Positions 1 to 15,081 of a stretch of DNA of 15,081 bases are shown one piece after another. Both the position numbers and the translations under genes were made by a program. How positions within the stretch are numbered: the first letter of the stretch is position 1; every line of letters begins with the position of its first letter. This DNA comes from Prevotella sp. (GTDB taxonomy: Bacteria; Bacteroidota; Bacteroidia; Bacteroidales; Dysgonomonadaceae): the NCBI GenBank assembly GCA_031285625.1, contig JAITVV010000066.1:1-15081 (forward strand), given 5' to 3'. Under the pieces are notes generated by a model. That model ran no database searches, had not been told where the DNA came from, and worked only from the letters and a program-made list of their open reading frames with translations.

Positions 1-117
1 TTTTGTTACTTCTAACAAAAATAGAGATTTGAAATGTACACGTAAAAAAAACGAATATTATTAATTGCATATCAAATAATTACATCGCTTGTTAATGTTT
101 TTTAGTGGACACTAGTG
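1..117 (-). mobile_element. Probable end of an insertion sequence (IS4-family-like terminal inverted repeat), continuing beyond the window edge
   Basis: GH35 homology stops abruptly after ENMGRINY. The minus strand then reads CACTAGTGTCCACTAAAAAAAC, which from memory resembles the CAYTAGTGTCC ends of Bacteroidota IS4 (DUF4372-type) elements. AT-rich non-coding DNA follows, with an inward TAnnTTTG (16-23) and an 8-bp inverted repeat (1-20). No transposase is visible. Confidence 0.55.
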
Positions 118-1553
118 TAGTTGATACGCCCCATATTCTCCACCAGTATTTCCAGTGTACTGTTAAACGGGATATCAATATCCATTGTGTATTTATTAAA
201 GTAGCGGTTCAGCTCCCCGGCCTTTTCATCATTTGCATATACAGTGGCATAGTCACGCAGTCCCTTTATCTCTAATGTCCCGCTTATCGGCTGGTTAAAG
301 TGTTTGCGGTATAAAACATATCCATACCCCTGGTTCAGTTGCTCAAAGGTCAGCGGGGTATTATTTTCTGTTGTCTTAAAGTCCATGCCTTCCAGGGTCG
401 CTACCTTGTCAAGCCTTATAGACGGAATCTCTATCAGGTCAATAGCGGAAGGAGCCTCCGGTAAAGTGTAATCTACATATTTTTGGATAACATTACGCAG
501 TGAATCGAACTTGGGGGTAACCCATCCGGCTTCACTGACTGGTGCATCATAATCATAACTGGTCAGGTCGGGTTGTATATCATGCTTCTTATCATAGTTG
601 GCACCACTTGTAAATCCGAAGTTAGTACCGCCATGAACCATATAATAGTTGATAGATACGTCATTCTGAAGGTATTTTTCTGTCTGGCGGGCAACACTTG
701 CCGCGCTTACCCGGGGATGGGGCTCCACCCAGTGTGCAAGCCAGCCCGGATAAAACTCGGCAACCATGTAGGGCCCTTGGCCTCCGTTGTACCGGTTCAC
801 CACTTTTTTCAGGTTATCGATATTACTTTCACCGTTTGCAGTAGGAAGAGCGCCCGGTACAGCCCCGCCTTCAAACAGCCAGCTGCCGTCGGATGTAAAA
901 GAAGGGATATCAAAGCCTGCTGTTTTCAGTTGCTGTACAATCTTCGCGTTATAACGGCGGTGTTCTTCAAGGGGAATATCTTTCCGCTGGGAGACATAGG
1001 AACCGAATTCATTCTCGGCCTGTACCATAATAACAGGGCCGCCTTTGGTTATTTGTAAGTTGCCTATCTCCTGATACAATCTGTTTATATATAGTTGAGT
1101 ATATTTCAGGAATTGCTCATTGTCGCGCCGCAGTTCCATTCCTTCTATATTCTGGAGCCACCATGGATATCCTCCGAATTCCCATTCGGCACATACATAA
1201 GGCCCGGGGCGCAGGATAACCATAAGGCCTTCTTCACCGGCAATCTTAATATATTCTGCCAGGTTTTTATCTCCTGTAAAATCCCATTTGCCCAGTTCGG
1301 GTTCGTGGGCATTCCAGAATACATAGGTGGCTACCGCGTTCAGTCCCATTGCTTTCAGCATTTGCATACGGTGACGCCAGTACTGGTGAGGGATACGCGG
1401 ATAATGCATTTCTCCCGATATAATGCGGACAGGCTTTCCATCGTAGACAAAATCCCCGCCTTTAATTTCAAAGGTATGCTTGTCCTGGGATTGGACGGCT
1501 ACAGGAGATAATAAAAACAATAGTAATAACAGTAAATAGTTTCTCTTGGTCAT
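102..1553 (-). pseudogene. GH35 beta-galactosidase, 3'-truncated by an insertion
   Basis: Signal peptide and GH35 motifs SGEMHYPR, RPGPYVCAEWEFGGYP, QAENEFG (acid/base), AEFYPGW (nucleophile), YMVHGGTNFG and TSYDYDAP. It ends at ENMGRINY plus TSVH*; family members normally continue through further beta-sandwich domains. Confidence 0.85.
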
Positions 1554-1932: not shown

Positions 1933-3564
1933 TTAATCCGGATAGAGAGGTAGCCGGTATACCCTGTGAAATCCTCCAGCATTCTCCAGTTCGAGACGGA
2001 AGACCACTTCATTGGAGGCCGGGTCTATTTCGAGGATGCAAGAACCGCTTTTTCCGTTGCTCAGGGTAGCTCCTTCCGAAGAACCAAACAAGATGTGTCT
2101 CGTTTGCGGCAGATAGCCGGCATTGGAACGAGACGAGGCATAATACTCGGGCATGTCCTTGCCGTAATCCCACACTTGGCGGACAGTCATGTTCGCTTCA
2201 TCTATTTCGTAGATCACAGCACGACTGTAAGGTATCTGCAGATTGTTACGGATAAAGTTACGCGCCAATCCATTGTCAAACACCAAAATGCGATGCAGCA
2301 TGCCGTTGCTGCCTTCGTCCGGCAGTACTATCGGAGCATGCGGCCCCCATGCCCAGTCGAAATCATCGAGGTGTACCGCACCTTCTACTACGGCGGGATC
2401 GGTAATCACGTTACCATCACCATCCAGTGGAGTAAGCAAATACGGTTGATATTGCTCACGCCAGCCCCTGTGGGGAGCGAGTATCCACATCAATTCGCCG
2501 GACGGCTTAAACTTAAAGATACCTTGGTAGCGTGAACAGGATATATAGTTTTCCCCCCAATCGGCGATGGCATTGTTGTGTGCCCAGTTGGAGGGAGACA
2601 TTGCCGCCGGATTCACTCCCAGCACCTTAGCACCGAAACGAGCAGAATCCAACATATTTGCCAAATCCCACTCATGCACGATGGCACCAGTTTCAGGATT
2701 CCATTCCACTATTTGGTCACGGATGCGACGGGTTCCGTTAATACGCTGAGCATCCTGTTGGGTCATACAACTTATCAGATTGCCATTTCCCATTTCTCTG
2801 GTTTCGTGATGAAATTTGTAGCCATCGGTAGTTAGAAAGTCATAAGTCTGCATCACTTCCCCCAAGATATTGACCGTGCGGATGAAACCTCTATTATTAT
2901 CTCCAATAAGCCAGTTGCCGTCTTTCATGCGTGAGAAAGCGGCGTTCATAATGGTGTGCATCATTTCTTCCGAATTTCGCCAGTTGAGCAGGTAGCGGAT
3001 TTCGCCATCGGCATCTACCATATAGGGCATGGAAGTGTCATTGTCGCCATTGGGAGTGTAGAGCATCAAATCCATACCCGGCTCCATGCGGGATACATCA
3101 GCCTTGAGTACACGGCGGACCTGAGGCACATAAGGGATATTGAGCGGACCTACCTGTATCTCTATTAGCGTGTCGCCTTGTTCAATACCCTGCTCGTCAA
3201 GGAATGCCAATTTCACCTGGTTGGTATAGTCGGAATATAGTCCTAACACGTCTATGAACTGTGCTGGTTCGGCGCTGTATGGAAAGAGGTGTTCCTGTGC
3301 CGGGGTTATGGCATTAGGTTTCGGCAAAACGGTGGCACGTATGGACATACCGCCCGAAGTATTGACCCGAATCCGTGCTGCCAGTGGGCAGAATCCGCTC
3401 GGGTCGACGGTAACGGAGGCAACAGCGGCAGTGAGGGCGGGAGTACCGGTTTGCGGCGTCGGGAGTGTAGGGATATCATCGTCGCTGCAAGCGACAACGG
3501 TAAGGAAACTCACCAACAACAGAATAAAGCTATACAAGCATTGTTTAAAAATCAGTTTTTTCAT
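1933..3564 (-). CDS. Arylsulfate sulfotransferase (ASST family) lipoprotein with N-terminal Ig-like domain
   Basis: Lipobox VVAC followed by SDDD. N-domain motifs DPSGFCPLAA and VLGLYSDYTNQV. ASST motifs FHHE, WAHNNAI, SRYQG, WGPHAP, FDNG, YSRAV and C-terminal HRVYRLPLYP. Confidence 0.85.
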   Translation of the reverse strand: MKKLIFKQCLYSFILLLVSFLTVVACSDDDIPTLPTPQTGTPALTAAVASVTVDPSGFCPLAARIRVNTSGGMSIRATVLPKPNAITPAQEHLFPYSAEPAQFIDVLGLYSDYTNQVKLAFLDEQGIEQGDTLIEIQVGPLNIPYVPQVRRVLKADVSRMEPGMDLMLYTPNGDNDTSMPYMVDADGEIRYLLNWRNSEEMMHTIMNAAFSRMKDGNWLIGDNNRGFIRTVNILGEVMQTYDFLTTDGYKFHHETREMGNGNLISCMTQQDAQRINGTRRIRDQIVEWNPETGAIVHEWDLANMLDSARFGAKVLGVNPAAMSPSNWAHNNAIADWGENYISCSRYQGIFKFKPSGELMWILAPHRGWREQYQPYLLTPLDGDGNVITDPAVVEGAVHLDDFDWAWGPHAPIVLPDEGSNGMLHRILVFDNGLARNFIRNNLQIPYSRAVIYEIDEANMTVRQVWDYGKDMPEYYASSRSNAGYLPQTRHILFGSSEGATLSNGKSGSCILEIDPASNEVVFRLELENAGGFHRVYRLPLYPD

Positions 3565-3590
3565 CGTAAGATTGTACTTAATAATGAAAG

Positions 3591-3612
3591 GTGGGCAGGT
3601 TCACCTGCCCAC
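3591..3612 (-). terminator. Stem-loop between susD and the ASST gene (weak terminator or mRNA-stabilising hairpin)
   Basis: Perfect inverted repeat GTGGGCAGGT-TC-ACCTGCCCAC. On the minus strand it is followed only by CTTTCATT. Confidence 0.65.
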
Positions 3613-3629
3613 TGTCTATTGTAAAAAAA

Positions 3630-5264
3630 TTATTGCCATTCAGGTTTTTGGTCCAATTCTACGTTCGCGTCTACTTCAGCTTGCGGAATAGGCAGGAAGC
3701 GATGCTTAGGCTGGTAGTTGGCCGGACTTTGACCGGCATCCTTAGTTTCTACGAGATAGTTTTTAAGGGCGCTGTCGTCATACCAGCGGATAAGATCGTA
3801 CCAGCGCAAATTCTCGGCACAGAATTCCAGTAACTTTTGCTTGCGCAGTTCGGTCCAGGCGGCATCCACATCTAAAATCTCTTTGCCTGGCAATCCAGCA
3901 CGCACACGGATACGGTTGATGTCCGCCATGGCGCCACCTACATTATTCGTTTGCAAACAGGCCTCGGCATGAAGGAAAAGAATTTCGGCAAAGCGCATCA
4001 CGCGCAGGTTGTTGTCGCGCGCCTGCTCATTGCCTCCGTACATAGTACATCCGGCAGTAGACCACCAGGCAGCGAATTTCTTGAAGATAAACCGTCCGGG
4101 TACACCACCAATAGGTTCCCACTGCGGAGCAGGGTTTACTTTCGTACCGGCAGCTCCCCACATGGTATCAAAATCGACATCGTTGTACCATGTTTCGTCA
4201 GGCTTCACATCGCCATAGTCGCTGTACTTGAAGTAGCAGGTGGTGTAGAGGCGTTTGTCCCATTTGGTATCGCTACCGGCCGACCGGGGTTCGGATACAA
4301 ATTCGCTGACAAGGTGAGCCGAAGGTTGCATCTTGTACCATCCGCCACCGCTAGGCAATTGCGGACCAAAGAAGTTGGCAAGATTATTTCCCATAAAACC
4401 GTTGACACCTGTCTGGTTACCCCATGTACTGTTTGGGTCGCCAAAGAAACCATAGTCAATTTCGTAAATGGATTCACGGTTAAACTCGGTGGTATTCTTG
4501 AAGTTGTCTTCGTAGTTCTCTGTAAGGTTATAAGTATAGGGAGAAGTCATAATCAACTCGAACTGGGTTTTGGCTTCGGCATACTTGCCTTGCCACAGGT
4601 AAGTCTTACCCAACATGGCGATGGCGGCACCCTTGGTGATACGCCCGTTTTCAGCAGCAGGACGTTCAACAGGTAAAGCTTCGATAGCTGCATTAAAATC
4701 GCTTTCGCATTGTGCCAGTACATCGGCTTGGCTGCTCCAGCCATGTTGTTCAGAGTCGGCCTTTTGCGGCAGGGTACGTATTACAGCGCCACCGTAGTTC
4801 TGTTGCAACAGGAAGTACTGGAATCCGCGCATGAAATAAGCTTCGCCCATCATTTGCTTCAGGGTGGCAGCATCCATATCTACATTGGGAGCCGAATACA
4901 TAAACTCATTAGCTAGCTGTACACCCATGTACAGTTTTGCCCATGGGTCGTCAAGTGTTTCGGGGGTGTTGGTGTAAGTCAGTACCTCCCAGGCAAACCT
5001 TTCTTCGTTCCGGGTAGGAAACAGGTCGTCAGCGCGCATGGAGTTGTTCCATATCCCGCTGTATGCTCCGTAATAACCGTACATTTCATCGCGGATAGGG
5101 TTGTACACAGCCACCAATCCCCGCATTACGTTCTCTTCATTAGTCCAGAAAGTACCATCGGTTTCTTTACTGGGATCGTTGCCCTCGTCTAAAAAACTTT
5201 CACTACATGATGTCGTTAATATCAGGGCAAGCACGAATGCTGTCATATATTTCTTTATATCCAT
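3630..5264 (-). CDS. susD: RagB/SusD family outer-membrane glycan-binding lipoprotein
   Basis: Lipobox LTTSC-SESFLD. Motifs GEAYFMRG, GRITKGAAIAMLGKTYL, MRFAEILFLHAEA, INRIRVRAG, RWYDLIRW and LPIPQAEVDAN. Lies directly downstream of susC. Confidence 0.95.
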   Translation of the reverse strand: MDIKKYMTAFVLALILTTSCSESFLDEGNDPSKETDGTFWTNEENVMRGLVAVYNPIRDEMYGYYGAYSGIWNNSMRADDLFPTRNEERFAWEVLTYTNTPETLDDPWAKLYMGVQLANEFMYSAPNVDMDAATLKQMMGEAYFMRGFQYFLLQQNYGGAVIRTLPQKADSEQHGWSSQADVLAQCESDFNAAIEALPVERPAAENGRITKGAAIAMLGKTYLWQGKYAEAKTQFELIMTSPYTYNLTENYEDNFKNTTEFNRESIYEIDYGFFGDPNSTWGNQTGVNGFMGNNLANFFGPQLPSGGGWYKMQPSAHLVSEFVSEPRSAGSDTKWDKRLYTTCYFKYSDYGDVKPDETWYNDVDFDTMWGAAGTKVNPAPQWEPIGGVPGRFIFKKFAAWWSTAGCTMYGGNEQARDNNLRVMRFAEILFLHAEACLQTNNVGGAMADINRIRVRAGLPGKEILDVDAAWTELRKQKLLEFCAENLRWYDLIRWYDDSALKNYLVETKDAGQSPANYQPKHRFLPIPQAEVDANVELDQKPEWQ

Positions 5265-5289
5265 ATTGCTTAGTATTTGATTATTGAAA

Positions 5290-8200
5290 TTAGAATGTTA
5301 CTTGCAAGCCGAAGGTAATGGTACGCGCCAGCGGATAGCGTCCCATGTCGCAACCACGGCTCATTACTATGTCAGAGCCATCCATTCCGGCGTTAATACC
5401 CAAATCTGGAGTGTAACCAGTGTAGCTTGTCAGCGTAAACAGGTTTTCTATAGCGGTATAGATGCGTACGTTCTGCAGCCGGGCTTTCTGCATCCATATC
5501 TGTGGCAGGGTATAACCCAATTCCAGTGTTTTCAGTCTCAAGAAATTACCACTTTCGAGCCAGCGATCGGTGTAGGCCCACTCAGTACCGTTGTTATCGG
5601 TATTGGTAGAGGGATCGCCGGTGGTACCTATGAATCGTGGAATGTCAGTACCGGTATTGTCGGGACGCCACGAATCTGCTACATCGGTGAAGAAATTTAC
5701 CACACCTTCTTGTTTAGCATTGGAGTACGGCAGAGCATTGAAGATCTTGTTTCCGAATTGCCCATCGAAGAACACGTGTAGGTCGAGGCCTTTCCATGCA
5801 GCACTCAGGTTGATGCCGAGGCTGGTTTTAGGCAGAGCCGTACCGGCATATTGACGGTCGGTACCGTCAATCTTGCCATCGCCATTGGCATCAATATACT
5901 TCAGGTCGCCGGGAACAGCGTTAGGCTGAATCAGTCCGCCGTCCTTATTCTTATAAGCGTCAATCTCTGCCTGGTTTTGGAAGATGCCTTCGCTCTTAAT
6001 CAACCAGAAACTTCCGATAGGATATCCCAACTTGGCATAAGTAACTGCTCCTCCGGCGTTTGGATTAAAACCCTCCCACTCAGTGCGTTCGCCGATAGTA
6101 ACTTTGGTTAATTCGTTGCTCAGGAAAGTGGCGTTGACACCAACGTTGTAGCTGAAATCGCCCACATCGTCACGCCAGTTCAATGATAGTTCCAGACCCT
6201 TATTGGTTACGTCTCCGGCGTTAAGGGTCGGCATTCCGCTCAGACCGAAGCTGGTAGGTTGCGGAATAGCAAGCAACATGTCGGTAGTCTTCTGAATAAA
6301 GTAGTCGGCAGTCAAGGTAAACTTGTTGTTCCACATTCCGTAGTCGATACCTATATTCAGTGTTTTGGATTTTTCCCAAGTAGTATTCTGCGGGCTTACC
6401 CAACTGACACCGGTGATAGAACCGTTGACCCAAGTATTTCCAAATACGCCATTGTATCCCAGCATCGGAGCCGACTGTGTAGCGTAGCGGCCGATACCAT
6501 TCAGGTTACCCAGTACACCGTAGCCCACGCGTAGCTTGAGTTGATTGATTGTTTTGTTCATTGAGTCGAAAAACTCTTCGTTGGCTATATTCCAACCTAT
6601 CGAGGCAGATGGGAAACTACCCCATTTGTGTCCATCGGCAAATTTGGACGAACCATCGCGGCGAATAGATACACTTGCCAGATAACGATCGCCGTAAGAG
6701 TACATGGCGCGTGCAAACATGGACAGCAAAGATTCTTTCCATGCTCCACCACCTGCTATCATTCGGCTGGCGTCACCCACACCTATCACATGCAGGCCGT
6801 CGGGCATATCTCTGGCTCCGGCACTGAAGTTACGAAAGTTGGTACGTTGAGCCGAATAACCGGCTAATACATTAATGGAGTTCAGTCCAAAGGTGTTGTC
6901 GTAATTCAGGGTATTTTCTATAAGCCAGTCGTCTTGCCAAGCTGTATTTTCATCGAGTTGCGAAGTAAGATTTTGGGATTGCGAACTGACGTAATAAGGT
7001 ACAATATCGCTGTAATTGCGATAGGTATAACGATTGACCCCGACATTGAACTTGTATTTCAATCCCTTGAGGAACAGATCCGCTTCGACCCACGCGTTTA
7101 GCATCAGGTCTACATTGTGGCGTTTATTGTCGTGCGCCTCCAATTCGGCTACAGGATTGGTCGCAGTTTTCGCCCATGCGGGAGTCATACCCCAATGTCC
7201 CGGAAAATCGGGATGATTGTAGTCATATACCGACTGCATAGGTACTATATTAGGCAGTGCGGAAGTTCCATAGTTATCATAGTCGGTACGGCTCATTCGG
7301 ATAGCGAACGTGTTACCCAGCCTCACGTGATTGTCGAAGAAAGAGAACGTATTTTTGGTACGCAAATTCCATCCTTCGTATCCTGATGTCTTCATAATAC
7401 CGTCCTGCTTGGTGTAGCTGCCCGATACATTGAAAGTGGCCGTTTTACTGCCTCCCAATACGTTAAGGTTAATTTTGCTGATAAATGCTTGGTTAAACAC
7501 TTCATCCTGCCAGTCAGTACCTTTACCGTTCCAGCCGGTCAATTCGCTAGCGTCTTGCGCTATGTTGTACTGTTTGGCAAAGTCGCGAAACTGGTTTCCG
7601 TCCATTAGGCTCAACCTCTTGGCTACGTTCTGCACGCCGGCGTAGGCATCTACCGTAACGCGGGTAGGCGATTCCCTTAGTCCTCCCTTGGTGGTGATAA
7701 GGATAACGCCATTAGCTGCGCGCGAACCGTAGATAGCAGCAGCCGAAGCGTCTTTCAGCACCTCTATGGATTGAATGTCGGATGGGTCTACCATGTTGAT
7801 GTCGCCATATACACCGTCAATTACATAGAGCGGAGTAGTAGAACTCAAAGAGTTGATACCACGTATATTGATGCTCATGCTTTGTCCCGGCTGGCCGGTA
7901 GTGCTTGACACTGTAACACCGGCTACCCGTCCTTGAAGCGCTGATGCCGCGCTACGTGCCACGTTGGCCTGCAAATCTTTGCCGGAAATAGAAGCGACAG
8001 CACCTGTGAGATGGCTCTTTTTTGCCGTACCATAACCGATAACGACTATCTCGTCCAAAAGCATTTCATCCTCAATCAGTGTTATGTCCAGTGTTGTATC
8101 ATCTCCTAACAGTATTTCTTGCGAAACAAAGCCCATGTATGAAATGACCAGTGTGGAACCGGGCGAAACATCAATGGAAAAATCCCCGTCTATATCGGTC

Positions 8201-8643
8201 ACGGTACCTATGGCCGTATTGCCTTTTACCGTAATACTCGCGCCTATAATAGGTTCTCCTTTGTTGTCAATGACCACGCCTGTGTAATTCCTCAAAGGAA
8301 CTTGCCGGGGTACTGTTATAATTATAATCCGGTTGCCTTCGATCCTGTAGGTTGCACCTGTACCGTTGAGTAGGAGTTCCATGGCTTCAGGCAGAAGTTT
8401 GTCCATTATATTAATATCGACGGCTTGTTTCGTATTGATGACCGATTCATTATAAGCGACTGTCATCTTTGTCTGTTTTTCTATTTCCTCAAAAGCCGAT
8501 AATATGGTTGTCCGGCCCGGAGGTAATGTAATTTTTTGGCTCTGTGCATTCAGGTTCAGTGAGCCCAAGAGTAAAATAAAAAGAAAAATGCTTCTTAATA
8601 AATTAACCCACTGTTTACTTAATGAATGATTCGATATTTTCAT
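5290..8643 (-). CDS. susC: SusC/RagA TonB-dependent transporter with N-terminal STN signalling domain (transducer)
   Basis: Signal peptide ending LNA-Q, STN domain, GEPIIGASITVKG, TonB box LDEIVVIGYG, KDASAAAIYGSRAANGVILITTK signature and terminal Phe. The ORF track opens at a TTG at 8688; the ATG at 8643 (or 8652) is the more likely start. Confidence 0.95.
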   Translation of the reverse strand: MKISNHSLSKQWVNLLRSIFLFILLLGSLNLNAQSQKITLPPGRTTILSAFEEIEKQTKMTVAYNESVINTKQAVDINIMDKLLPEAMELLLNGTGATYRIEGNRIIIITVPRQVPLRNYTGVVIDNKGEPIIGASITVKGNTAIGTVTDIDGDFSIDVSPGSTLVISYMGFVSQEILLGDDTTLDITLIEDEMLLDEIVVIGYGTAKKSHLTGAVASISGKDLQANVARSAASALQGRVAGVTVSSTTGQPGQSMSINIRGINSLSSTTPLYVIDGVYGDINMVDPSDIQSIEVLKDASAAAIYGSRAANGVILITTKGGLRESPTRVTVDAYAGVQNVAKRLSLMDGNQFRDFAKQYNIAQDASELTGWNGKGTDWQDEVFNQAFISKINLNVLGGSKTATFNVSGSYTKQDGIMKTSGYEGWNLRTKNTFSFFDNHVRLGNTFAIRMSRTDYDNYGTSALPNIVPMQSVYDYNHPDFPGHWGMTPAWAKTATNPVAELEAHDNKRHNVDLMLNAWVEADLFLKGLKYKFNVGVNRYTYRNYSDIVPYYVSSQSQNLTSQLDENTAWQDDWLIENTLNYDNTFGLNSINVLAGYSAQRTNFRNFSAGARDMPDGLHVIGVGDASRMIAGGGAWKESLLSMFARAMYSYGDRYLASVSIRRDGSSKFADGHKWGSFPSASIGWNIANEEFFDSMNKTINQLKLRVGYGVLGNLNGIGRYATQSAPMLGYNGVFGNTWVNGSITGVSWVSPQNTTWEKSKTLNIGIDYGMWNNKFTLTADYFIQKTTDMLLAIPQPTSFGLSGMPTLNAGDVTNKGLELSLNWRDDVGDFSYNVGVNATFLSNELTKVTIGERTEWEGFNPNAGGAVTYAKLGYPIGSFWLIKSEGIFQNQAEIDAYKNKDGGLIQPNAVPGDLKYIDANGDGKIDGTDRQYAGTALPKTSLGINLSAAWKGLDLHVFFDGQFGNKIFNALPYSNAKQEGVVNFFTDVADSWRPDNTGTDIPRFIGTTGDPSTNTDNNGTEWAYTDRWLESGNFLRLKTLELGYTLPQIWMQKARLQNVRIYTAIENLFTLTSYTGYTPDLGINAGMDGSDIVMSRGCDMGRYPLARTITFGLQVTF

Positions 8644-8656
8644 ATTTTGCATAAAA

Positions 8657-8762
8657 TTTTTTCGGTGAATATTCGTTTGAATTCTCAATTGGTTTAGTTA
8701 AAAGGTTCATCGATTTCAAACCGGAGGAGGTTTGCTTGCCGGCACTTTCCGGTTCTTTTTCA
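8657..8762 (+). ncRNA. Candidate antisense sRNA to the susC leader, copy A (degenerate promoter)
   Basis: Hairpin 8719-8754 followed by CTTTTT. Two stem positions pair as G-U only on the plus strand. The -7 element is one base short (CATATTTTG). Ends are approximate. Confidence 0.45.
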
Positions 8763-8792
8763 TAGCGGTGATTCATTTAAGGTTTAACAAAA

Positions 8793-8963
8793 TTAATATA
8801 TATATTATCATTTTCTATTTTATATTTCAGATAGGATACGGGATATGTCAACGCGACCATAAAATCGGCAGCACACTTTTACTATCGTTCCGTTTTCTAA
8901 TTTCCACTACTTCATTTACCGGACCATATTGCCCTCGATCCAGACGATAATATTCTTTATTTT
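8793..8963 (-). pseudogene. Decayed remnant of a fecR 3' end
   Basis: Translates in broken frames as KIKNIIVWIEGNMV / PVNEVVEI / AADFMVALTYPVSYLKYKIENDNIYI. The intact FecR reads KIENVIAWINGNMV / PVNEVIKI / VADFMTVLKYLIPSLKYKIENDNIFIY. Confidence 0.9.
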
Positions 8964-9008
8964 ATCTTATTCCAGATTCATATAAAAATGAAAGTATCCT
9001 TTCAAGTA

Positions 9009-9040
9009 CCGGTAGCCTTGATACGGGCTACCGGCCTTTT
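9009..9040. terminator. Hairpin downstream of the GH30 gene
   Basis: CCGGTAGCC-N8-GGCTACCGG. The T-tract lies on the plus-strand side, not the sense side. Confidence 0.55.
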
Positions 9041-9062
9041 ATTGATAAAAGTATTTTACGAC

Positions 9063-10562
9063 CTATTGTACTGATCCTACAAATGTTACAACACTTTTTG
9101 CCGGAATATCCAATATATACTGGCCATTTTCCGGTGTGACAGTTGTTTCAGCCCAGGTATTATCAGCATCGGTAAGTACTCTCCTCAGGCTTGTTACACC
9201 CTGTACGCCGTTAACATTAAGAGGGGTAAGCACATTTTCATCGGTTTTATTTACCATAACAATAACCATTCCATTACCTTTTTTGTATGATGAGATATGG
9301 AAATCGGTAGGAAGCCCATTCCCTCTGTCGATAGTAACTCTGCGGCTATCAGATTCGATATACCTTGAGAAGTTTCCGAATGCTTCGTAGCGTTTTGTCA
9401 GAGTATAACTTTCACGGTCGCTCATATTCATGAAAATCAAGCCTTCGTCGTTATCTCCCGGTACTGCGCCTAGCCAGTAGATTAAAGCACTGGCGCTGGC
9501 ATCCGACAAGTATCTGTGAAAATCGGCAGCCCAGTCCAGAGCATTAGCCATGTCGGTATGAGGGCCGTCGATACTACTTGTTTCGGTGAGCCATACAGGA
9601 ATATTCATATCCATCGCTTTAGAAAACGGAATGATTGATGTCTTTTGTCCCGTTACAGGGTCTTTATAACCATGACCTGCAGCTATCGTATTGCAATCAG
9701 CAAGGGCAGGATTAAAATTCAGAACATCAGCCACAAAATTGCTGGAACCGAAGATGAATCCTAAAATAGGGCCCCATTGTGCATTTTCGCCAAAGATGAT
9801 TTTGGTTGACAATCCTTCGCTGCGGAATGCAGGGCTAAGGTCGTTAACGATGAACGGAGCTAAAGTCATAGAACCCGGTATCCATGTACAAGAAGTCCAT
9901 TCGGCTGCGTATTCAGGTTCGTTAGCCGGAGAAACAGCATAGATAGGATAACCGTTGTTCTGAAATTCCTTAACAAAACGGGTTATATAGTTTGCGTAAT
10001 TCTTATATTGAGATAAGTTCAAACTACCTTGTACCGTACTGCCGTTAGTCTTCATGTAAGCAGGAGGGCTCCAGGCTGAAAATATAACCTTTTCAACATT
10101 GTGCATTTGTTTGGCTTCCCTCAATACCCAATGTTGAGCTCTGATATAGAGTTCATTGTAGTTAGAGTCGCTGCCCTTATCCAAAACGCCGAAAAGCGGG
10201 TCGCTGTAAGGAATATCTATATCCCTGTCGAATCCGAAATCATAGACATTTTCAGCAGGAGAGAAAAATGGGGAAAGTTCTCCCCTGAGAATATTCAATC
10301 TCAAACCTTGTTCTCCATACAACCGGTTCATAATTTCCGAACGTTTGTGATGTGCATAAAGATCGTCGGCGTGTCCCTGGCAAACTCCAAAACCATCGAT
10401 GTTTTGTTGTTCCTGTGCCCATTGTACCGTTACACCGGATGAAGTCACAGTTGTAGCCGCTTTCAAGTTCTTTCCCTCAGGTATTTCTATCTGCTCCATA
10501 TCGGAACATGAGAAAAATAAACCGGAGATAAATATCATTCCTAAAAAAAATCGTGTTTTCAT
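9063..10562 (-). CDS. GH30 glycoside hydrolase lipoprotein (subfamily not assigned)
   Basis: Lipobox FFSC-SD. Motifs QNIDGFG, SAWSPPAYMKTN, SPANEPE (acid/base), WLTETS (nucleophile), FGNFSRYI and C-terminal PAKSVVTFV. Start is 10562 or 10568. Confidence 0.88.
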   Translation of the reverse strand: MKTRFFLGMIFISGLFFSCSDMEQIEIPEGKNLKAATTVTSSGVTVQWAQEQQNIDGFGVCQGHADDLYAHHKRSEIMNRLYGEQGLRLNILRGELSPFFSPAENVYDFGFDRDIDIPYSDPLFGVLDKGSDSNYNELYIRAQHWVLREAKQMHNVEKVIFSAWSPPAYMKTNGSTVQGSLNLSQYKNYANYITRFVKEFQNNGYPIYAVSPANEPEYAAEWTSCTWIPGSMTLAPFIVNDLSPAFRSEGLSTKIIFGENAQWGPILGFIFGSSNFVADVLNFNPALADCNTIAAGHGYKDPVTGQKTSIIPFSKAMDMNIPVWLTETSSIDGPHTDMANALDWAADFHRYLSDASASALIYWLGAVPGDNDEGLIFMNMSDRESYTLTKRYEAFGNFSRYIESDSRRVTIDRGNGLPTDFHISSYKKGNGMVIVMVNKTDENVLTPLNVNGVQGVTSLRRVLTDADNTWAETTVTPENGQYILDIPAKSVVTFVGSVQ

Positions 10563-10691
10563 AAACAATACTTTTTAGTAAAAAATAGAGTAATAACATT
10601 CGAGGCAAAAATGAAATTGCCTGCATCGCGCAAAAGCAGATATTAGTGACACTGAATGTCCGAGTATGGTTTTGAAGCCTCTCGATTCAGG

Positions 10692-10699
10692 CAAATCTA
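10692..10699 (-). promoter_or_regulatory. Candidate Bacteroidota -7 promoter element for the GH30 gene
   Basis: TAGATTTG matches TAnnTTTG about 130 nt upstream of the start. No well-spaced -33 TTTG was seen. Confidence 0.4.
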
Positions 10700-10921
10700 T
10701 AGCTTTAAAACAGACGTTTCCATTTGTGATTCAAAGTTTTAAATAAAATTACTAAACACTTCCCCATTAAGGGAAATATACATAGAAGAGTATCTGCAGA
10801 TACGGAGCCTTTATGGGTGTACATCATAGTAGAGCGGAAACCTCAAGATTCCTTCCTAAATCACCGATGTTCAACTTACTAATTAATACAAGCCCATACT
10901 TACATTTTTCTAATTTTATTT

Positions 10922-12088
10922 TTAGAATAAATTTACATTTATTATCTTATTTAAAGTTTTCATAGACTCGGCTGAGCAATATCCGTCGGGAGCCGTGTTT
11001 ATACAATAATCCAGTAACCGGTCGATAGAAGATGTGGCAACATGCATTCGCGTATCGGATGAAGCGTAATATATGTATATCGTACAATCATTATCTGTAA
11101 TCCATCCATTCGAAAATAATACATTATACACATCTCCCACACGTTCCTTTTCCATGGGAGCCATGAAATATCCGGCAGGCTCGGTAATTAATTTATTGGG
11201 ATGCTGCAAATCTGTAAGGTACAAATAAAGTATATAGCGCAATCCTGCGGCGCAATTGCGTACGCCATGGGCCAGATGTAGCCAACCTTTCGGAGTCTTT
11301 ACAGGATGAGGACCTTCCCCATTCTTAACCTCTTTTACCGTATGATAGTGACGGTAGTTTATTATTTCTTCTTTATCTATTTCCGCCTTTGTCATATCAT
11401 CGATAAGCGCCCAGCCGATTCCGCCTCCGCTTCCCGCATCTATGAATCCATCCTGGGGACGTGTATATAGCGCATATTTACCGTTCACAAACTCGGGATG
11501 CAATACGACATTGTGCTGCTGGCTTTTCGATTTGAGGTCGGATAAACGTTCCCAACTTATCAAATCCTTTGTCCTTACAATCCCGGCAGAGGCTACCGCC
11601 GAAGACAGGTCTCCTGCCGGTGCTTCGGGGTCTTTTCGTTCGGCACAGAATATGCCGTAAATCCATCCGTCTTCGTGGGCGGTCAGGCGCATATCGTACA
11701 CATTCGTCTCCTTGTCGCCGGTTTGTGGAAGGGTGACAGGATACTCACGGAAACGGAAATTATCGACCCCGTTAGGGCTTTCCGCTATTGCAAAAAAAGA
11801 TTTCCGGTCATATCCCTCGACACGGGCTATTAAAAGATATTTGTCCTGCCACTTTATAGCTCCTGCATTAAAAACTGCATTAATACCGAAGCGTTCCATA
11901 AAATATGGGTTCGTTTCAGGGTTCAAATCATAACGCCAAAATAACGGAGTATGGTCTGCCGTTAATACAGGATTTTTATATCGTTCAAATATGCCATTTC
12001 CGGTTAAAATCCTCTCATTTTTACGCGCTAAAGTTTGTTCATGGGCTTTACTAATAATGTTCAGCCTCTCATTATAAATATCATTCAT
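10922..12088 (-). CDS. GH130 4-O-beta-D-mannosyl-D-glucose phosphorylase-like protein
   Basis: [45 protein letters not shown] (catalytic Asp), [24 protein letters not shown] and [12 protein letters not shown]. No signal peptide. Closely resembles B. fragilis MGP as recalled. Confidence 0.92.
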
Positions 12089-12140
12089 ATTGGATTTCCT
12101 TTATTTTATATTACAGATACAAAGAACATGGAAGAAAAGC

Positions 12141-12215
12141 CAAATCTATCTTTAAATATGGGTTTGATTACTTTAACAATGTATTGTTAAGCACTAATAT
12201 TCAATACAATACATT
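12141..12215 (-). promoter_or_regulatory. Candidate GH130 promoter (-7 TAGATTTG at 12141-12148) with an upstream operator-like palindrome
   Basis: TAnnTTTG match about 53 nt upstream of the ATG. Palindrome TTAACAAT-GT-ATTGTTAA at 12173-12190 and a second inverted partial site ACAATACATT at 12206-12215. Confidence 0.5.
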
Positions 12216-12247
12216 TAGTTTTTTGTTACGTACTTAGGTCTTACTGC

Positions 12248-12407
12248 CTATTTCCTCAGGGGATTGGTATGTTTATCCGGCCCGGAAACAATGTAACTTT
12301 CCGGTTTTGTGCATTCAGATTTAGCGGGCCTATAAGCAGCATATAAAGAATAGTATATTTTCTTTATAAATTAACCTGCTATTTATTTGATTAATAAATA
12401 TTTTCAT
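12248..12407 (-). pseudogene. Decayed remnant of a susC 5' end
   Basis: ATG AAA ATA at 12407, then after a frameshift QVNL*RKYTILYMLLIGPLNLNAQNRKVTLFPGRINI. The intact SusC reads WVNLLRSIFLFILLLGSLNLNAQSQKITLPPGRTTI. Confidence 0.9.
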
Positions 12408-12414
12408 ACATTTG
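12386..12414 (+). promoter_or_regulatory. Antisense sigma-A-type promoter overlapping the pseudo-susC start codon
   Basis: TTTG at 12386-12389, a 17-nt spacer (slightly short), then TACATTTG at 12407-12414. Confidence 0.6.
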
Positions 12415-12420
12415 CATAAA

Positions 12421-12526
12421 TATTTCGGTGAATAGTCGTTTTAATTCTCAGATGGTATAGTTAAAAGGTTCATCGATTTCAAACCGGAGGGATATGCTTG
12501 CCGGCGTCCTCCGGTTCTTTTCATTT
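12421..12526 (+). ncRNA. Candidate cis-antisense sRNA (DonS-like position), copy B
   Basis: Lies downstream of a consensus -7 element. Ends in hairpin AACCGGAGG (12482-12490) / CCTCCGGTT (12508-12516) plus CTTTTCATTT. Its position between anti-sigma and susC matches that described for Bacteroides PUL antisense sRNAs. Confidence 0.55.
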
Positions 12527-12550
12527 CTGGTATTTTAGGTTTAACAATAT

Positions 12551-13543
12551 TTAATATATAAATATATTATCATTTTCAATTTTATATTTCAGAGAGGGTA
12601 TGAGATATTTCAATACGGTCATGAAGTCGGCAACGCCCTCTTCAGGCATGATTCTCATCGTTATCCGTTCATCCCGGTATTTGTCCGGATCGAAATATAC
12701 TTTTACGGCATATTTCCGCTCAATGATTTTTATTACTTCATTTACCGGCATGGACTGAATGACCATATTGCCGTTGATCCAGGCTATGACGTTTTCTATT
12801 TTCACAGTCTTTTTCTTGATTAATCCCGTTTTTTTACCGTATGTTACCTGTTCGTTAGGAAGCAGAAGCACAGATTCCTTATCCGTATTTTTGAATGTCA
12901 CGTTTACTTTCCCGCTTTCAAGCGAGGCAGACAGGTTTTCACTGTCTGTATAAGCAGAGACATTGAATATGGTACCCAAAGCTTCAACATCCATACTGCT
13001 CGTTTTTACGATAAAAGGCTTTGTTTCGTCTTTAGCCACGGTAAAATAAGCTTCTCCATTCAGAAATATGTCCCGGGTACCGGTAAAGTGCCGGGGATAA
13101 ATAAGGATACTACCGGAATTTACTTTTACTACAGAAGAATCAGGGAGGGTGATTGTCCGGATTTCGCCATCGGGTACAATACATTCAATGAATGCAAGGC
13201 TGTTATCAGCCATATTAGAGTTTTTTACGGCCCAATAGGTAATCCCCGCGGATATAAGCGGGAGTACCAGTATAGCCGCGATCCTTAATAATTTCCGTAT
13301 GGATAATCTTTTTTTAGAATCGGGGATAGATGTTGCTTGTATCTTTGCTTGTAAGATTTCATAGGATTTTTCAGCAGACTGGCCGGCTATAATATCCAGT
13401 TCGTCCCAGATACTTCTGAAAGCTGCATCTTTTTCAGCTTTGTCATCAGTATCTTTTATCCATGATATGAATTCCTTTTGCAGGCGGTCCGGATAATTAT
13501 TATTAAAGTACTGTCTTATTATTTCATGTATTCTTGTCGGCAT
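12551..13543 (-). CDS. FecR-family anti-sigma factor
   Basis: Transmembrane segment RIAAILVLPL. FecR motifs LPDSSVVKVNSGS, LNGEAYFTVAKDETKPFIV, LGTIFNVSAY and LESGKV. The likely start is the ATG at 13543 (MPTRIH) rather than the TTG at 13597. Confidence 0.93.
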   Translation of the reverse strand: MPTRIHEIIRQYFNNNYPDRLQKEFISWIKDTDDKAEKDAAFRSIWDELDIIAGQSAEKSYEILQAKIQATSIPDSKKRLSIRKLLRIAAILVLPLISAGITYWAVKNSNMADNSLAFIECIVPDGEIRTITLPDSSVVKVNSGSILIYPRHFTGTRDIFLNGEAYFTVAKDETKPFIVKTSSMDVEALGTIFNVSAYTDSENLSASLESGKVNVTFKNTDKESVLLLPNEQVTYGKKTGLIKKKTVKIENVIAWINGNMVIQSMPVNEVIKIIERKYAVKVYFDPDKYRDERITMRIMPEEGVADFMTVLKYLIPSLKYKIENDNIFIY

Positions 13544-13564
13544 ATCTTTCCCGTTTATATATTT

Positions 13565-13591
13565 ATGACAGGAAAGATATCGCTTTCTCCC
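13565..13591 (-). promoter_or_regulatory. Possible ECF-sigma promoter for fecR
   Basis: GGGAGA-N15-TGTCAT between the sigma and fecR genes resembles motifs recalled at Bacteroidota sigma/anti-sigma junctions. This is inference only. Confidence 0.3.
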
Positions 13592-13608
13592 GACCAAGGG
13601 CGATTTTT

Positions 13609-14157
13609 TCAGTAAAAAAATACAATTGCCAGATACAGAACCTTCCGGATATCGTTTAGGGCAAGGCTTAACTGGTTTTCCACGGTTTTTTTTGCCAGCC
13701 CTAATTTTTCAGATATCGTTTCTTTTTCAAGATTATAGACCCGGCTCATTATAAATATTTTACGTCTTTGGATAGGCATCCGGCTTACTGCCAACCGCAC
13801 TAAAAAGAGTAATTCTTCTGCATTTAGTTTTTCTTCCGGATTTGTTTCCGCAGGCTGGTTGTAATCGGTTATGTATGATTTTTCGACAAATTTATGCTCC
13901 AGATAGTTTAATGCCTTATTTTTAGCTGTTCTATACATATAAGCATTGAAAGAACGGATATTAAGAATATTTTCCCTGTTTTCCCATATTCTTAAAAAAA
14001 TATCCTGAGATAACTCTTCTGCAATGGTTTCAGACTTTATTATATGTGTGATGAAATATTTTATTTTGGGGTAATATTTCAAAAAGATTGAACGAAAGGC
14101 CTCATGGTTTCCCAGAGCTATCTTCTTAAGGTCGTTTATTTCTTCATATGGTACCAT
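13609..14157 (-). CDS. ECF sigma-70 factor (Bacteroides expansion family)
   Basis: Region 2 AEELSQDIFLRIWENR ... AKNKALNYL and region 4 RRKIFIMSR ... ISEKLGLAKKTVENQL. Adjacent to fecR. Confidence 0.95.
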   Translation of the reverse strand: MVPYEEINDLKKIALGNHEAFRSIFLKYYPKIKYFITHIIKSETIAEELSQDIFLRIWENRENILNIRSFNAYMYRTAKNKALNYLEHKFVEKSYITDYNQPAETNPEEKLNAEELLFLVRLAVSRMPIQRRKIFIMSRVYNLEKETISEKLGLAKKTVENQLSLALNDIRKVLYLAIVFFY

Positions 14158-14217: not shown

Positions 14218-15081
14218 GAACTCATTTAAATTTTTTTCTTTTTAAGAATTTCTTCAGACCAATGACAATAAAAGCCAGATAATTGAATCCTTTCCAGCTA
14301 GATACAGTAGTATCAAACCTGTTAAGGAGGCTTCTGAACCCATCGAGCCATGCATTTGTTCGTTCAATGGAATAACGCTCCCGATAAAGCAATTAATCAA
14401 AATAATTGTCGTTTTGACAGTCCCCGTTACGCGGATTTTCAGCAAAATTTGCAATAATGCCTTTCTCTGAGCAGAGTTGCCTGAACTGTTGCGAGTCAAA
14501 ACCGGCATCTGCATTCACAAACAATCCGTCCAGGGATATGCCTGCCTGCTCCAATGGGTTCACCAGTTCATTGAAATGAGTTTCAATTTCGAACAGGTCA
14601 TGGTGATTCCCACTTGCGGGTTCACTCATCGATAATGGCAAACCTTGACGGTCAGTGAAATACAGAGAATTGGTGGTTTTACGTTTTTTCCGTTTTTGAT
14701 AACCTGTCTGTTTTCCTCCCTTTATCGCTCCGGTATGACTGCCGTCCAGGTCGCTGCTTGATAAATCCAACAAGTATCTGTATTTGTGCAGAATTTGTAT
14801 CCAGCTTTGGCTCCATACACCAGCCTTGCACCATTTGCGGTAATGATAGTAAACTGACTGCCAACTGAGAACCAAATCTGAAAAAAGAAATCCTACCGGA
14901 AGTAAATACCACTGCACGCCTGTTTTTAACTTATAGAGTATCGCATTAACGATCTCTTCAAGAGGTGCTTGGGGTGAAAAGCCTCTTTTGTTGGATGGAA
15001 TATGGCAGATTATTTCCATTTCTATTATATCTTTGTCAAGTACTTTGTACATAGGGGGAAGCGATTAGGTTTTAGTTTACA
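14218..15081 (-). mobile_element. IS5-family insertion sequence (far end outside the window)
   Basis: Contains an IS5-type transposase. The probable terminal repeat GAACTCATTTAAA overlaps the transposase stop codon. The boundary is approximate because the partner repeat is not visible. Confidence 0.75.
14222..15052 (-). pseudogene. IS5-family DDE transposase with a premature TAA at 14393-14395
   Basis: Motifs AILYKLKTGVQW, DLDGS and NADAGFD. The same frame continues past the stop as LLYRERYSIERTNAWLDGFRSLLNRFDTTVSSWKGFNYLAFIVIGLKKFLKEKKFK*. Confidence 0.9.

Follow-up and report, generated by a model that had tools for sequence, protein, structure and literature searches.

Polysaccharide utilization loci (PULs) are the main tools with which gut Bacteroidota digest plant and host glycans. 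Their canonical components are an ECF sigma factor, a FecR-type anti-sigma factor, a SusC transporter headed by an STN domain, SusD and a set of enzymes. Martens et al., in 2009, reportedly presented the O-glycan PULs of Bacteroides thetaiotaomicron as an example of such trans-envelope signalling by an ECF sigma/anti-sigma pair, and Cao et al., in 2016, are said to have described the DonS family of PUL-associated cis-antisense sRNAs. To our knowledge, little has been documented on the ways in which an existing sensor gains control of new enzyme sets.

Three described systems offer points of comparison. DonS RNAs, as set out in excerpts of PMC7366714, are cis-antisense RNAs of 78-128 nt that are divergent to susC and lower its expression. 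In PUL24 of B. thetaiotaomicron, a spontaneous BT1871-BT1872 duplication puts a GH97 alpha-galactosidase under a ribosomal promoter (excerpts of PMC11501099). PUL20 and PUL44 of the same species are enzyme-first PULs: they open with a glycoside hydrolase gene that FopS sRNAs target (excerpts of PMC11697453).

The locus described here occupies a 15,081-nt contig, analysed whole and called the window below, within a 4.84-Mb, 96-contig metagenome-derived genome of a termite-gut Dysgonomonas-like bacterium. It resembles the ECF-sigma PULs of Bacteroides in possessing an ECF sigma factor, FecR, STN-SusC, SusD and enzymes, with every gene of the window on the minus strand, but differs in that the fecR-susC adjacency is broken by an enzyme cassette lying between two copies of the junction. 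Each copy carries a predicted RNA that, by the description of the family in excerpts of PMC7366714 and PMC13750123, is like DonS in lying between the anti-sigma gene and susC, on the opposite strand, in having a terminator hairpin and in its predicted size of about 105 nt. Unlike DonS, the predicted RNA occurs twice in one locus, once facing a dead susC start followed by enzyme genes. The PUL24 event, as excerpted, is likewise a duplication in or beside an ECF-sigma PUL, and it alters the promoter of glycoside hydrolase genes, as the one in the window may do; a GH97 gene is also found in the sister lineage of the window. The PUL24 duplication arose recently, can revert, is associated with an IS element and brings in a promoter from outside, whereas in the window the PUL's own junction is duplicated, and the duplication is old and fixed, with decayed coding halves. 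PUL20 and PUL44 share with the arrangement predicted for the window a transcription unit that begins with an enzyme gene instead of susC and sRNA control at its 5' end; their FopS sRNAs act in trans, however, and the excerpts of PMC11697453 describe no duplicated junction or pseudogene remnants.

Gene content and mosaic make-up of the locus

The ECF sigma gene (13609..14157) matches Pfam Sigma70_r2 and Sigma70_r4_2 (PF04542 at 42.5 bits and PF08281 at 39.7 bits, each above cut-off). The intact FecR-type anti-sigma gene (12551..13597; Pfam FecR and FecR_C, PF04773 and PF16344, above cut-offs) starts 12 nt past the sigma end, and its last ~90 codons form part of the upstream junction copy. Compared with the products of the uninterrupted locus L031, the sigma factor is 61% and FecR 59% identical. 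In the same genome, susC directly follows 22 of the 24 fecR genes (full-length fecR-like ORFs), with gaps of -4 to 228 nt. The fecR of the window is an exception: 3.9 kb separate its stop (12551) from the start of susC (8652), and the locus is an ECF-sigma/anti-sigma-controlled PUL with a broken fecR-susC adjacency.

Two enzyme genes fill this gap. The first encodes a GH130 protein (10922..12088; PF04041) whose closest solved relative is a 4-O-beta-D-mannosyl-D-glucose phosphorylase (PDB 3WAS, E 2.8e-196); it is 75% identical in amino acids to a paralogue on contig C61 of the same genome and, reading the N-terminus by eye, has no signal peptide. The second encodes a GH30-family protein (9063..10568; PF14587, PF02055) with a lipoprotein-type signal, also read by eye from the N-terminus, and with AcXbh30A (7N6H, E 4e-40) as its best solved relative. 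No GH30 homologue at E<=1e-60 was found in 34 other genomes of the genus. Where the fecR remnant begins, immediately beyond the stop codon of GH30, lies a 10-bp GC-rich hairpin (9009..9034; strand unassigned, T-run on the plus strand), and the alignment suggests that it overlaps fecR-derived sequence.

Downstream of the cassette, the live SusC-type TonB-dependent transducer (5290..8652; 1120 aa; Pfam STN, CarbopepD_reg_2, Plug and barrel) carries its STN domain at residues 75-124, scoring 31.0 bits against a cut-off of 28.4. It is directly followed by a SusD-family gene (3630..5264; SusD_RagB, SusD-like_3), whose product shares 89% amino acid identity with that of contig L054, from the sister lineage. 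An arylsulfotransferase-like gene of the ASST beta-propeller type (1933..3564; PF05935), also present in L054, comes next. At the contig end lies a GH35 beta-galactosidase gene (102..1553; PF01301). Its 483-aa product is short next to a GH35 relative of 632 aa in L052, with which it shares 83% identity over 479 aa.

Domain-wise BLAST and sliding identity indicate that the live SusC has a signalling head of the fecR-linked type, and a plug and barrel of an STN-less type. GC content runs from 34% in the sigma gene and 39% in fecR through 43% in GH130 and GH30 to 47-50% in SusC, SusD and ASST, compared with 37.0% for the genome. It climbs from 33% (8401-8700) to 46-53% inside susC, not at the copy boundary. 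By these comparisons, the locus is a GC mosaic and its live SusC a chimera; the chimera suggests that sigma/anti-sigma sensors may be transplantable onto other transporters.

Duplication, reciprocal decay and age of the junction

A preliminary description of the window had reported a ~0.5 kb segment present twice in direct orientation, and a segment of 0.5-0.6 kb is confirmed. A repeat search returns seven direct-repeat blocks in co-linear order, each 27-90 nt long and 75-90% identical, located at 8503-8963 and 12268-12802 with a spacing of 3762-3839 nt, in agreement with the coordinates of that description. Over the homologous span, MAFFT alignment of the pair has 492 aligned columns, of which 360 (73%) are identical, and 95 columns with gaps. 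When the upstream copy is searched by BLAST against all 4.84 Mb of the genome, the only matches are the downstream copy (78% identity over 365 nt, E 2.4e-74) and a weak one of 57 nt, which excludes chance and leaves exactly two copies.

The upstream copy, copy A (12247..12835), consists of the live fecR 3' end, the intergenic region and a dead susC 5' end of ~57 codons with stops. Its ATG at 12417 reads MQMYENIY*, more stops follow, and homology ends near 12247. The downstream copy, copy B (8480..9034), holds a dead fecR 3' remnant (about 8795-9034), the intergenic region and the live susC 5' end. No frame of the remnant is free of stops, and compared with the intact fecR end it has lost 13, 62 and 2 nt in three deletions. 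Reciprocal decay, as first proposed, is evident from these features, and the copies do bracket the Pfam-assigned GH130 and GH30 genes. The two fecR ends are identical at 111 of 147 positions (75.5%), and either is only 63-66% identical to the closest relative's uninterrupted junction.

The age of the duplication can be gauged from L054, an independent metagenome contig that carries, in order, a partial copy A, GH97, GH130, GH30, copy B, SusC, SusD and ASST. The layout is that of the window with an additional GH97 gene, which sits exactly where the dead susC start stops. Nucleotide identity between the window and L054 is 84.5% for GH130 and 86.5% for GH30 in codon alignments (82.6% and 86.2% in BLAST segments), and dS over five genes is 0.49-1.29. 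Within the fecR remnant, the 13-nt and 2-nt deletions are common to both, and the 62-nt deletion is found in the window only. The same layout and two common deletions place the duplication before the split of the lineages (dS 0.5-1.3).

Conservation between the two lineages is uneven. Positions 12249-12506 of copy A are 92.6% identical to positions 1-256 of L054. The copy B core is 84-94% identical between the lineages, the adjoining remnant tail 61-70% and susC ~80%. The two cores of L054 are 95-98% identical to each other. Taken over 100-nt windows, the match to L054 is a strong mosaic of 62-98% identity, reaching 93-98% across the coding 3' end of GH30, so the high identity of copy A (89-97%) could reflect recent gene flow and not constraint; L054 ends without the upstream flank of copy A.

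Among related loci, an uninterrupted fecR-susC allele is readily found, as the preliminary description had proposed to check, but with different cargo. In G017/L031 (arranged as in L055, labelled Dysgonomonas termitidis) and in 15 other loci of the orthogroup, susC directly follows fecR. In L061, fecR and susC are separated by an alkaline phosphatase gene, with no repeated junction. As to other cassettes with a duplicated junction, an RNA-model search found two junction elements in 0 of 36 related loci; the window and L054 are the only two of the 38 sources that have them.

A predicted antisense RNA in both copies

Each copy of the junction retains an RNA structure on the plus strand, opposite susC, consisting of a 9-bp helix (P1) and a Rho-independent terminator. 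RNA model R1 matches both at full length, giving a predicted DonS-like antisense RNA gene at 12391..12529 in copy A (134.2 bits) and at 8627..8765 in copy B (130.1 bits). Copy A has helix P1 plus a hairpin/T-run terminator at about 12480-12525, with a terminator-like site on the plus strand at 12500-12515; the corresponding plus-strand site in copy B is at 8738-8753. The RNA is predicted to be ~105 nt long, a figure for which its 5' end was placed by a TAnnTTTG-like box overlapping, on the other strand, the ATG of susC. Read by eye, this -7 box is one base short of TAnnTTTG in the window's copy B.

The arrangement recurs at other junctions. In the same genome, an antisense hairpin with T-run occurs at 14 of 22 canonical fecR-susC junctions, and terminator-like sites on the sense strand occur at 7 of 24 (the 22 canonical junctions and the two window copies) and are mostly weaker. 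Searching 38 sources with model R1 yields 21 matches, all antisense, and those compared with a fecR match follow it closely; two matches in a single source occur in the window and L054 alone.

RNAalifold predicts helix P1 and the terminator from seven sequences. The antisense strand pairs better than the sense strand on account of G.U pairs, with 60/63 versus 47/63 paired cells in P1 and 90/98 versus 78/98 in the terminator. Across 20 sequences, in an alignment that was fitted to the RNA model and so favours structure, 92% of cells are paired versus 78% in shuffles (0/500 reach the observed value), and 20 of 23 pairs change on both sides, with slid controls at 32-54%. The element matches no Rfam family, FopS included. 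No sigma-dependent promoter was located, and a scan for promoters of the E. coli type turned up 16 where 15.0 were expected, which is no enrichment. On these predictions, both copies look like carriers of an intact small antisense RNA gene. The structured RNA did not figure in the preliminary description, and it would offer a reason for retaining both copies.

Function and origin of the duplicated junction

The preliminary description took the locus for a scar of PUL remodelling, a view upheld by the mutual closeness of the copies, the decay of both redundant halves, the GC mosaic and the mosaic ancestry of the SusC domains. The account that we consider somewhat more probable than its negation is an old duplication of a control junction, with a DonS-type RNA, that left each copy as a regulatory module, one for the cassette and one for susC/susD, in a stable rewiring. 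A ~0.55-kb fecR-susC control junction was duplicated long ago, with GH130-GH30 (GH97-GH130-GH30 in the sister lineage) between the copies. The redundant coding halves, the susC start of copy A and the fecR end of copy B, are decaying, and the non-coding core of both copies has stayed intact. This core would encode the ~105-nt structured RNA opposite susC and probably also houses the leader and the region where the sigma factor starts transcription. Two transcription units would result, the enzyme cassette behind copy A, and susC-susD with the following genes behind copy B. With the same regulatory module before each unit, the added enzymes would answer to the transporter's sigma/anti-sigma switch and its antisense brake. 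What the sequence shows is an old duplication with reciprocal decay around a variable cassette, a conserved RNA structure in each copy and a mosaic locus; we infer that the RNA is made, that each copy holds a sigma-dependent promoter and that the cassette is driven from copy A. A TAnnTTTG-like box, read by eye ~60 nt before GH130 in the window, means that the cassette may not depend on copy A.

How the two copies arose is a separate matter. One candidate origin, possible but holding well under even chances, is the collapse of two adjacent sigma/FecR PULs, the first ending in GH(97)-GH130-GH30 and the second a related PUL downstream, with deletions that took most of susC onwards from the first, and sigma and most of fecR from the second. 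It concerns origin only and is compatible with two functional regulatory modules. Had the copies started out as diverged paralogues or xenologues, their 75-79% identity would call for no long decay; the GC mosaic points to several sources, and the lack of a second GH30 copy in the genome argues against a simple whole-PUL tandem duplication. However, collapse calls for two separate deletions, each stopping inside a gene, versus one duplication-insertion; both copies are AT-rich like the native regulator genes, with the GC shift lying inside susC; and a search of 35 genomes of the genus and 170 of the family turned up none in which both PULs stand intact side by side. The layout also recalls Campbell-type single-crossover integration or tandem duplication-deletion, in which an insert lies between direct target repeats with gene halves truncated at the inner ends, but the window has no integrase, att site or excision product and its repeats are about 25% diverged, so the mechanism is not readable from sequence. 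Single-crossover integration, collapse of adjacent PULs and duplication-insertion all predict the present layout.

A rather unlikely alternative on function holds that the duplication is a neutral by-product of cassette entry, copy A being functionless and not yet eroded, and the cassette being expressed by fecR readthrough or from its own promoter. The coding remnants are clearly decaying, the stretch of high identity in copy A may be a recombination tract given the mosaic identity to L054, the box before GH130 could serve the cassette, and the alkaline phosphatase insertion in L061 shows that such insertions need no second copy. Against this, copy A holds a full-length, intact RNA element that scores slightly above that of copy B, whereas the equally old tail of the fecR remnant is down to 61-70% identity between the lineages, and the cores of L054 have stayed close to each other.

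The preliminary description further proposed that the junction may act as a module-exchange site. On this reading, recombination between the copies would eject the cassette and admit others, recurrently and to this day. Flanking direct repeats, a cassette content that varies by lineage (GH97 in L054 only) and the very different cargo attached to the same sigma/FecR orthogroup in other genomes are in its favour. The proposal nevertheless fared badly and is improbable: the copies are only 73-79% identical and share no exact stretch longer than 33 nt; the layout and remnant deletions persist across dS 0.5-1.3; the cassette contains only GH130 and GH30 and no integrase or att-like feature; and none of the 36 related loci carries two elements. 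No joint of fecR to live susC, the excision product expected of an integrated cassette, occurs in the contigs of four runs, although contigs drop rare variants. A lone contig with a joint that skips 3774 nt was rejected as an excision product; it has a depth of 5.4 versus about 45-50, also aligns back to 9045 and matches susC at 85% identity, and we read it as another strain's downstream copy.

A repeat-induced misjoin, conceivable in a 96-contig metagenome assembly where the window is an entire contig ending in an IS fragment and a high-depth GH35 region, can be dismissed, since L054 has an identical order with both copies, contigs of X1, the probable source run, add up to an even depth (43-65 in each of 25 bins, 1510 to 14084), one X1 contig spans 9085-12487 with 0 differences, a contig of another study's run X3 crosses the GH30-to-remnant joint (8960-9316), and the copies, >20% different, are too unlike for assemblers to confuse.

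Resting on sequence from one locus in two lineages, the locus provides a dated natural example of an enzyme cassette between copies of a control junction whose coding parts are rotting and whose structured antisense RNA element is kept. The excerpts of PMC7366714, PMC13750123 and PMC11697453 describe no DonS-type RNA facing an enzyme operon.

Sensor transplantation of the kind that the chimeric SusC suggests is of interest for engineering inducible PULs. More tentatively, and with rather low confidence, the fecR-susC junction could be a portable regulatory cassette made of a sigma-dependent start region, a DonS-like antisense RNA gene and a leader. Bacteroidales would expand or rebuild their PULs by copying it before new enzyme operons and also by grafting the sigma/FecR/STN signalling head onto foreign SusC barrels. 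The locus would then display both steps, in the duplicated junction around GH(97)-GH130-GH30 and in a SusC with head and body of different ancestry, and PUL regulation would evolve by shuffling an RNA-plus-promoter module, not gene by gene. If each copy works, we know of no earlier case of a DonS-type RNA facing an enzyme operon, a statement made short of a targeted literature search, and the favoured account of two regulatory modules would supply a simple route to co-regulating added enzymes with the transporter.

The locus and its duplicated junction

The window is one entire contig (C38, 15,081 bases) of a 4.84-Mb genome in 96 contigs, and the public run that matches it best is labelled a termite gut metagenome. 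All of its genes lie on the minus strand. From the upstream end they encode an IS4/5-type transposase fragment (14393-15052; 219 aa with DUF4096 and a partial DDE domain), an ECF sigma factor (13609-14157), a FecR anti-sigma factor (12551-13597), GH130 (10922-12088), GH30 (9063-10568), an STN-bearing SusC (5290-8652), SusD (3630-5264), an arylsulfotransferase-like protein with an ASST beta-propeller (1933-3564) and GH35 (102-1553). GH130 is close to 4-O-beta-D-mannosyl-D-glucose phosphorylase (PDB 3WAS, E 2.8e-196), and the nearest relatives of GH30 are xylan-active GH30 enzymes (PDB 7N6H, E 4e-40). By these similarities the two enzymes would be compatible with hemicellulose use.

The ends of the contig have features of their own. 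The transposase fragment directly precedes the sigma gene, at the end opposite GH35, and depth there is about twofold in X1, the probable source run. At the GH35 end (1-1553), summed X1 contig depth reaches 256-379, compared with about 45-50 over the rest of the window, and variant positions are numerous. GH35 has 483 aa versus 632 aa in an 83%-identical relative, and no frame extends it within the final 100 bases. This end probably reflects a gene common to several co-resident strains, at which the assembly broke.

The preliminary description proposed a directly duplicated fecR-susC junction whose copies have decayed reciprocally, and this is borne out. Self-comparison of the window recovers two direct copies at 8503-8963 and 12268-12802, linked by seven co-linear repeat blocks of 27-90 nt with 75-90% identity and a spacing of 3762-3839 nt. 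Aligned over their region of homology, the copies agree at 360/492 columns, with 95 gap columns and a longest identical run of 33 nt; the genome holds exactly two such copies (E 2.4e-74). The upstream copy, copy A (~12247-12835, minus strand), retains a live fecR end followed by a dead susC start that reads MQMYENIY to a stop and then meets more stops. In the downstream copy, copy B (~8480-9034, minus strand), the fecR end is stopped in all frames and carries deletions of 13, 62 and 2 nt, and the live susC comes next. A local scan of the genome finds 65 susC-like ORFs, 43 of them without an adjacent fecR, and this susC alone among the 43 has a FecR C-terminal remnant upstream. A PF16344 (FecR_C) search of five genus genomes placed 142/142 matches in open frames of at least 288 aa; it missed the window's own remnant even at E<=10, so it has no power to detect such remnants.

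Uninterrupted alleles are present in relatives. Within the genome itself, susC follows 22 of 24 full-length fecR-like ORFs at -4 to 228 nt. The closest FecR among 35 genus and 170 family genomes (58-59% identity) is that of genome G017, where sigma, fecR and susC are uninterrupted and the junction can be aligned to both window copies; L055, titled Dysgonomonas termitidis, has the same arrangement. In their fecR ends the window copies share 75.5% identity, against 63-66% with the G017 relative. This is consistent with a duplication of the junction, or the coming together of close paralogues, later than the split from that relative. Among relatives of the window's sigma/FecR pair with sufficient downstream DNA, 16 of 17 loci are canonical. 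The exception, L061:8998-14508 from a Dysgonamonadaceae MAG, carries a gene for a 370-aa alkaline phosphatase after fecR and ahead of an STN-bearing susC; it shows neither a repeated junction nor a match to R1, the covariance model of the junction RNA element.

Authenticity, age and origin of the rearrangement

The rearrangement is real, old and stable. A GH30 protein scan of genome contigs found no relative; a GH30 protein search did find L054, an independent 14,165-base metagenome contig that is co-linear with the window. Its bases 1-256 comprise the copy A core and dead susC start (92.6% identical to the window), followed by GH97 (a Pfam assignment; absent from the window), GH130, GH30, copy B, SusC, SusD and an ASST-like gene, and its final gene encodes an MFS transporter where the window has GH35. 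Values of dS between window and L054 are 0.70 for GH130, 0.49 for GH30, 1.28 for SusC, 1.29 for SusD and 1.08 for ASST. Together with this co-linearity, an even X1 summed contig depth (43-65 in 25/25 bins across 1510-14084), a single X1 contig covering 9085-12487 with zero differences and a contig of another study spanning 8960-9316 argue against local misassembly. The fecR remnants of window and L054 have the 13-nt and 2-nt deletions in common and the 62-nt deletion is found in the window only; the remnant must thus have died before these two lineages separated, and its erosion has continued since. The dead susC starts carry stops at differing positions.

GH97 of L054 (257-2420; compare window 12105-12247) occupies precisely the interval from where the dead susC start ends to a conserved stretch of about 30 nt preceding GH130, and the difference is a gene gain or loss at the edge of the GH130-GH30 cassette. 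The ASST gene, an unusual PUL member, follows SusD in both lineages (window 1933-3564; L054:10868-12553) with 80% amino acid identity.

Several origins fit this layout: duplication-insertion, either as one complex event or by insertion after a short tandem duplication; Campbell-type integration of a junction-bearing circle; and the collapse of two adjacent related PULs. A foreign source for copy B is mildly disfavoured by the native-like composition of both copies. The genome has only one GH30 copy, which argues against plain tandem duplication of the whole PUL.

The further suggestion that the junction acts as an exchange site is not upheld for present-day activity: there is no recombinase gene, the layout has persisted over a dS of at least 0.5, and in the contigs of four runs (X1-X4, of which X2-X4 cover the window in part) none links fecR with the live susC, a search that rare excision could escape. 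One X1 contig (476 bases, depth 5.4) contains a joint that skips 3774 bases. It was rejected as an excision product, since the same contig returns to 9045 and matches susC at only 85% identity; it fits copy B of a related strain with the fecR remnant mostly gone. A metatranscriptome contig from another public run, X2 (window 12537-13535), matches fecR at 91% identity. Its next 16 bases look like the copy B spacer, not the copy A spacer, and adapter sequence follows; the contig could stem from a relative whose junction is in a different state, or mark the end of a cDNA.

A predicted antisense RNA element in both copies

Both junction copies contain a hairpin and T-run on the plus strand, opposite susC. 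A strong hairpin, mostly of 10-12 bp, with a T-run on this strand occurs at 14 of the 22 canonical fecR-susC junctions of the genome. Seven junctions of the sigma/FecR orthogroup have in common an A-run, a hairpin that shows compensatory changes, and a pair of blocks, UCGGUGAAU and GUUCAUCGA (antisense strand), which RNAalifold folds into a 9-bp helix. The antisense strand fits better than the sense strand owing to G.U pairs, both in the helix (60/63 versus 47/63 pairing cells) and in the terminator (90/98 versus 78/98). An ATG immediately precedes the A-run and hairpin at 7/7 junctions (window 12527-12530 and 8765-8768; loci L031, L034, L018, L019 and L054). A small ORF starting there was considered and dropped, as reading frames differ between copies, and the ATG is probably not a coding start.

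R1 matches four sites in the genome: copies A (12391-12529, plus strand) and B (8627-8765, plus strand) and the junctions on contigs C80 and C95. Across 38 sources it finds 21 sites, 21/21 of them antisense, and those compared with the end of the fecR match begin or sit close behind it; only the window and L054 hold two sites each. At least 4 of 35 genus genomes have a match, with 92 of about 830-3000 first-look candidates scored per genome. In a 20-sequence alignment fitted to R1 itself, 92% of cells are paired versus 78% in shuffles (0/500 reach 92%), and both-side changes occur in 20 of 23 pairs, with slid controls at 32-54%. In most copies a TAnnTTTG-like box, read by eye, overlaps the susC ATG on the plus strand and would give an antisense RNA of about 105 nt. 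No ECF-type -35/-10 pair of conserved spacing emerges across the seven junctions.

The DonS family is described as repressive cis-antisense RNAs of 78-128 nt that are encoded divergently from susC (PMC7366714, PMC13750123). The predicted element would match this published description, the basis of comparison being the description and not sequence. Judged by the 14 junctions with a hairpin and T-run, DonS-like antisense units seem common in the genome, though only four match R1. Among 4227 Rfam families at E<=1, neither FopS nor any other sRNA family was matched, the sole match being a chance-level lncRNA inside fecR.

R1 scores copy A as a full element (134 bits), while the neighbouring remnant of the same age is eroded. 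Between window and L054, copy A is 89-97% identical, and the copy B core forms a local peak of 84-94% between the remnant tail (61-70%) and susC (~80%); within L054, identity between cores A and B is 95-98%. Visual comparison of the four cores pairs A with A and B with B across genomes, not A with B within one genome, and gene conversion between the copies was dropped as an explanation for this reason. Identity along the locus is a mosaic of 62-98%. It reaches 93-98% in the 3' coding part of GH30, a tract that extends into the well-conserved first half of the fecR remnant. A constraint test on the dead coding pieces, which set window-L054 divergence against dS, was rejected as confounded by this mosaic. 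Given this mosaic, and since the sequence upstream of copy A is missing from L054, the high identity of copy A could come from recent gene flow that mimics constraint.

The junction as an evolutionary seam

Base composition changes along the locus. The genome has 37.0% GC, and the 99th percentile of its 1.5-kb windows is 46.4%. The sigma gene has 34% GC, FecR 39%, GH130 and GH30 43%, and SusC, SusD and ASST 47-50%, with the increase, from 33% to about 50%, located inside susC. The head of SusC (signal peptide with STN, and CarboxypepD_reg; window 8000-8652) is nearest to the fecR-linked SusC of G017 at 61-62% identity. For its plug, the nearest sequences are STN-less SusCs of AraC-linked PULs in the genus (53-70%). 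The same holds for its barrel (39-42%, 529-590 bits), which gives no more than 21-31% and 65-310 bits against fecR-linked SusCs. On these comparisons, the live SusC is a chimera of two ancestries, one for the head and one for the plug and barrel (5290-8000). The AraC-linked PULs also hold GH30-like, GH130 (69-75%), MFS and GH35 (83%) genes; no GH30 homologue at E<=1e-60 was found in the 34 other genus genomes.

Weak but recurrent PF16344 matches (18-31 bits) fall in the STN region of fecR-adjacent SusC (ORFs of ~1100-1200 aa; own and five genus genomes), which hints at a common fold for the anti-sigma C-terminal domain and the transducer signalling domain.

The cargo behind the sigma/FecR orthogroup is very different elsewhere. 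Because of the GC mosaic, the split ancestry of SusC and this varied cargo, the junction region is a seam that joins modules on an evolutionary scale. Its parts are of known kinds: an ECF-type PUL, a DonS-like RNA and PUL enzymes rewired by duplication, the last described in PMC11501099; enzyme-first PULs are likewise described in PMC11697453. No description of the combination was found in the literature, and the combination is what is new: a reciprocally decayed duplication of the junction, with an intact predicted antisense RNA element in each copy and a head-swapped SusC alongside.
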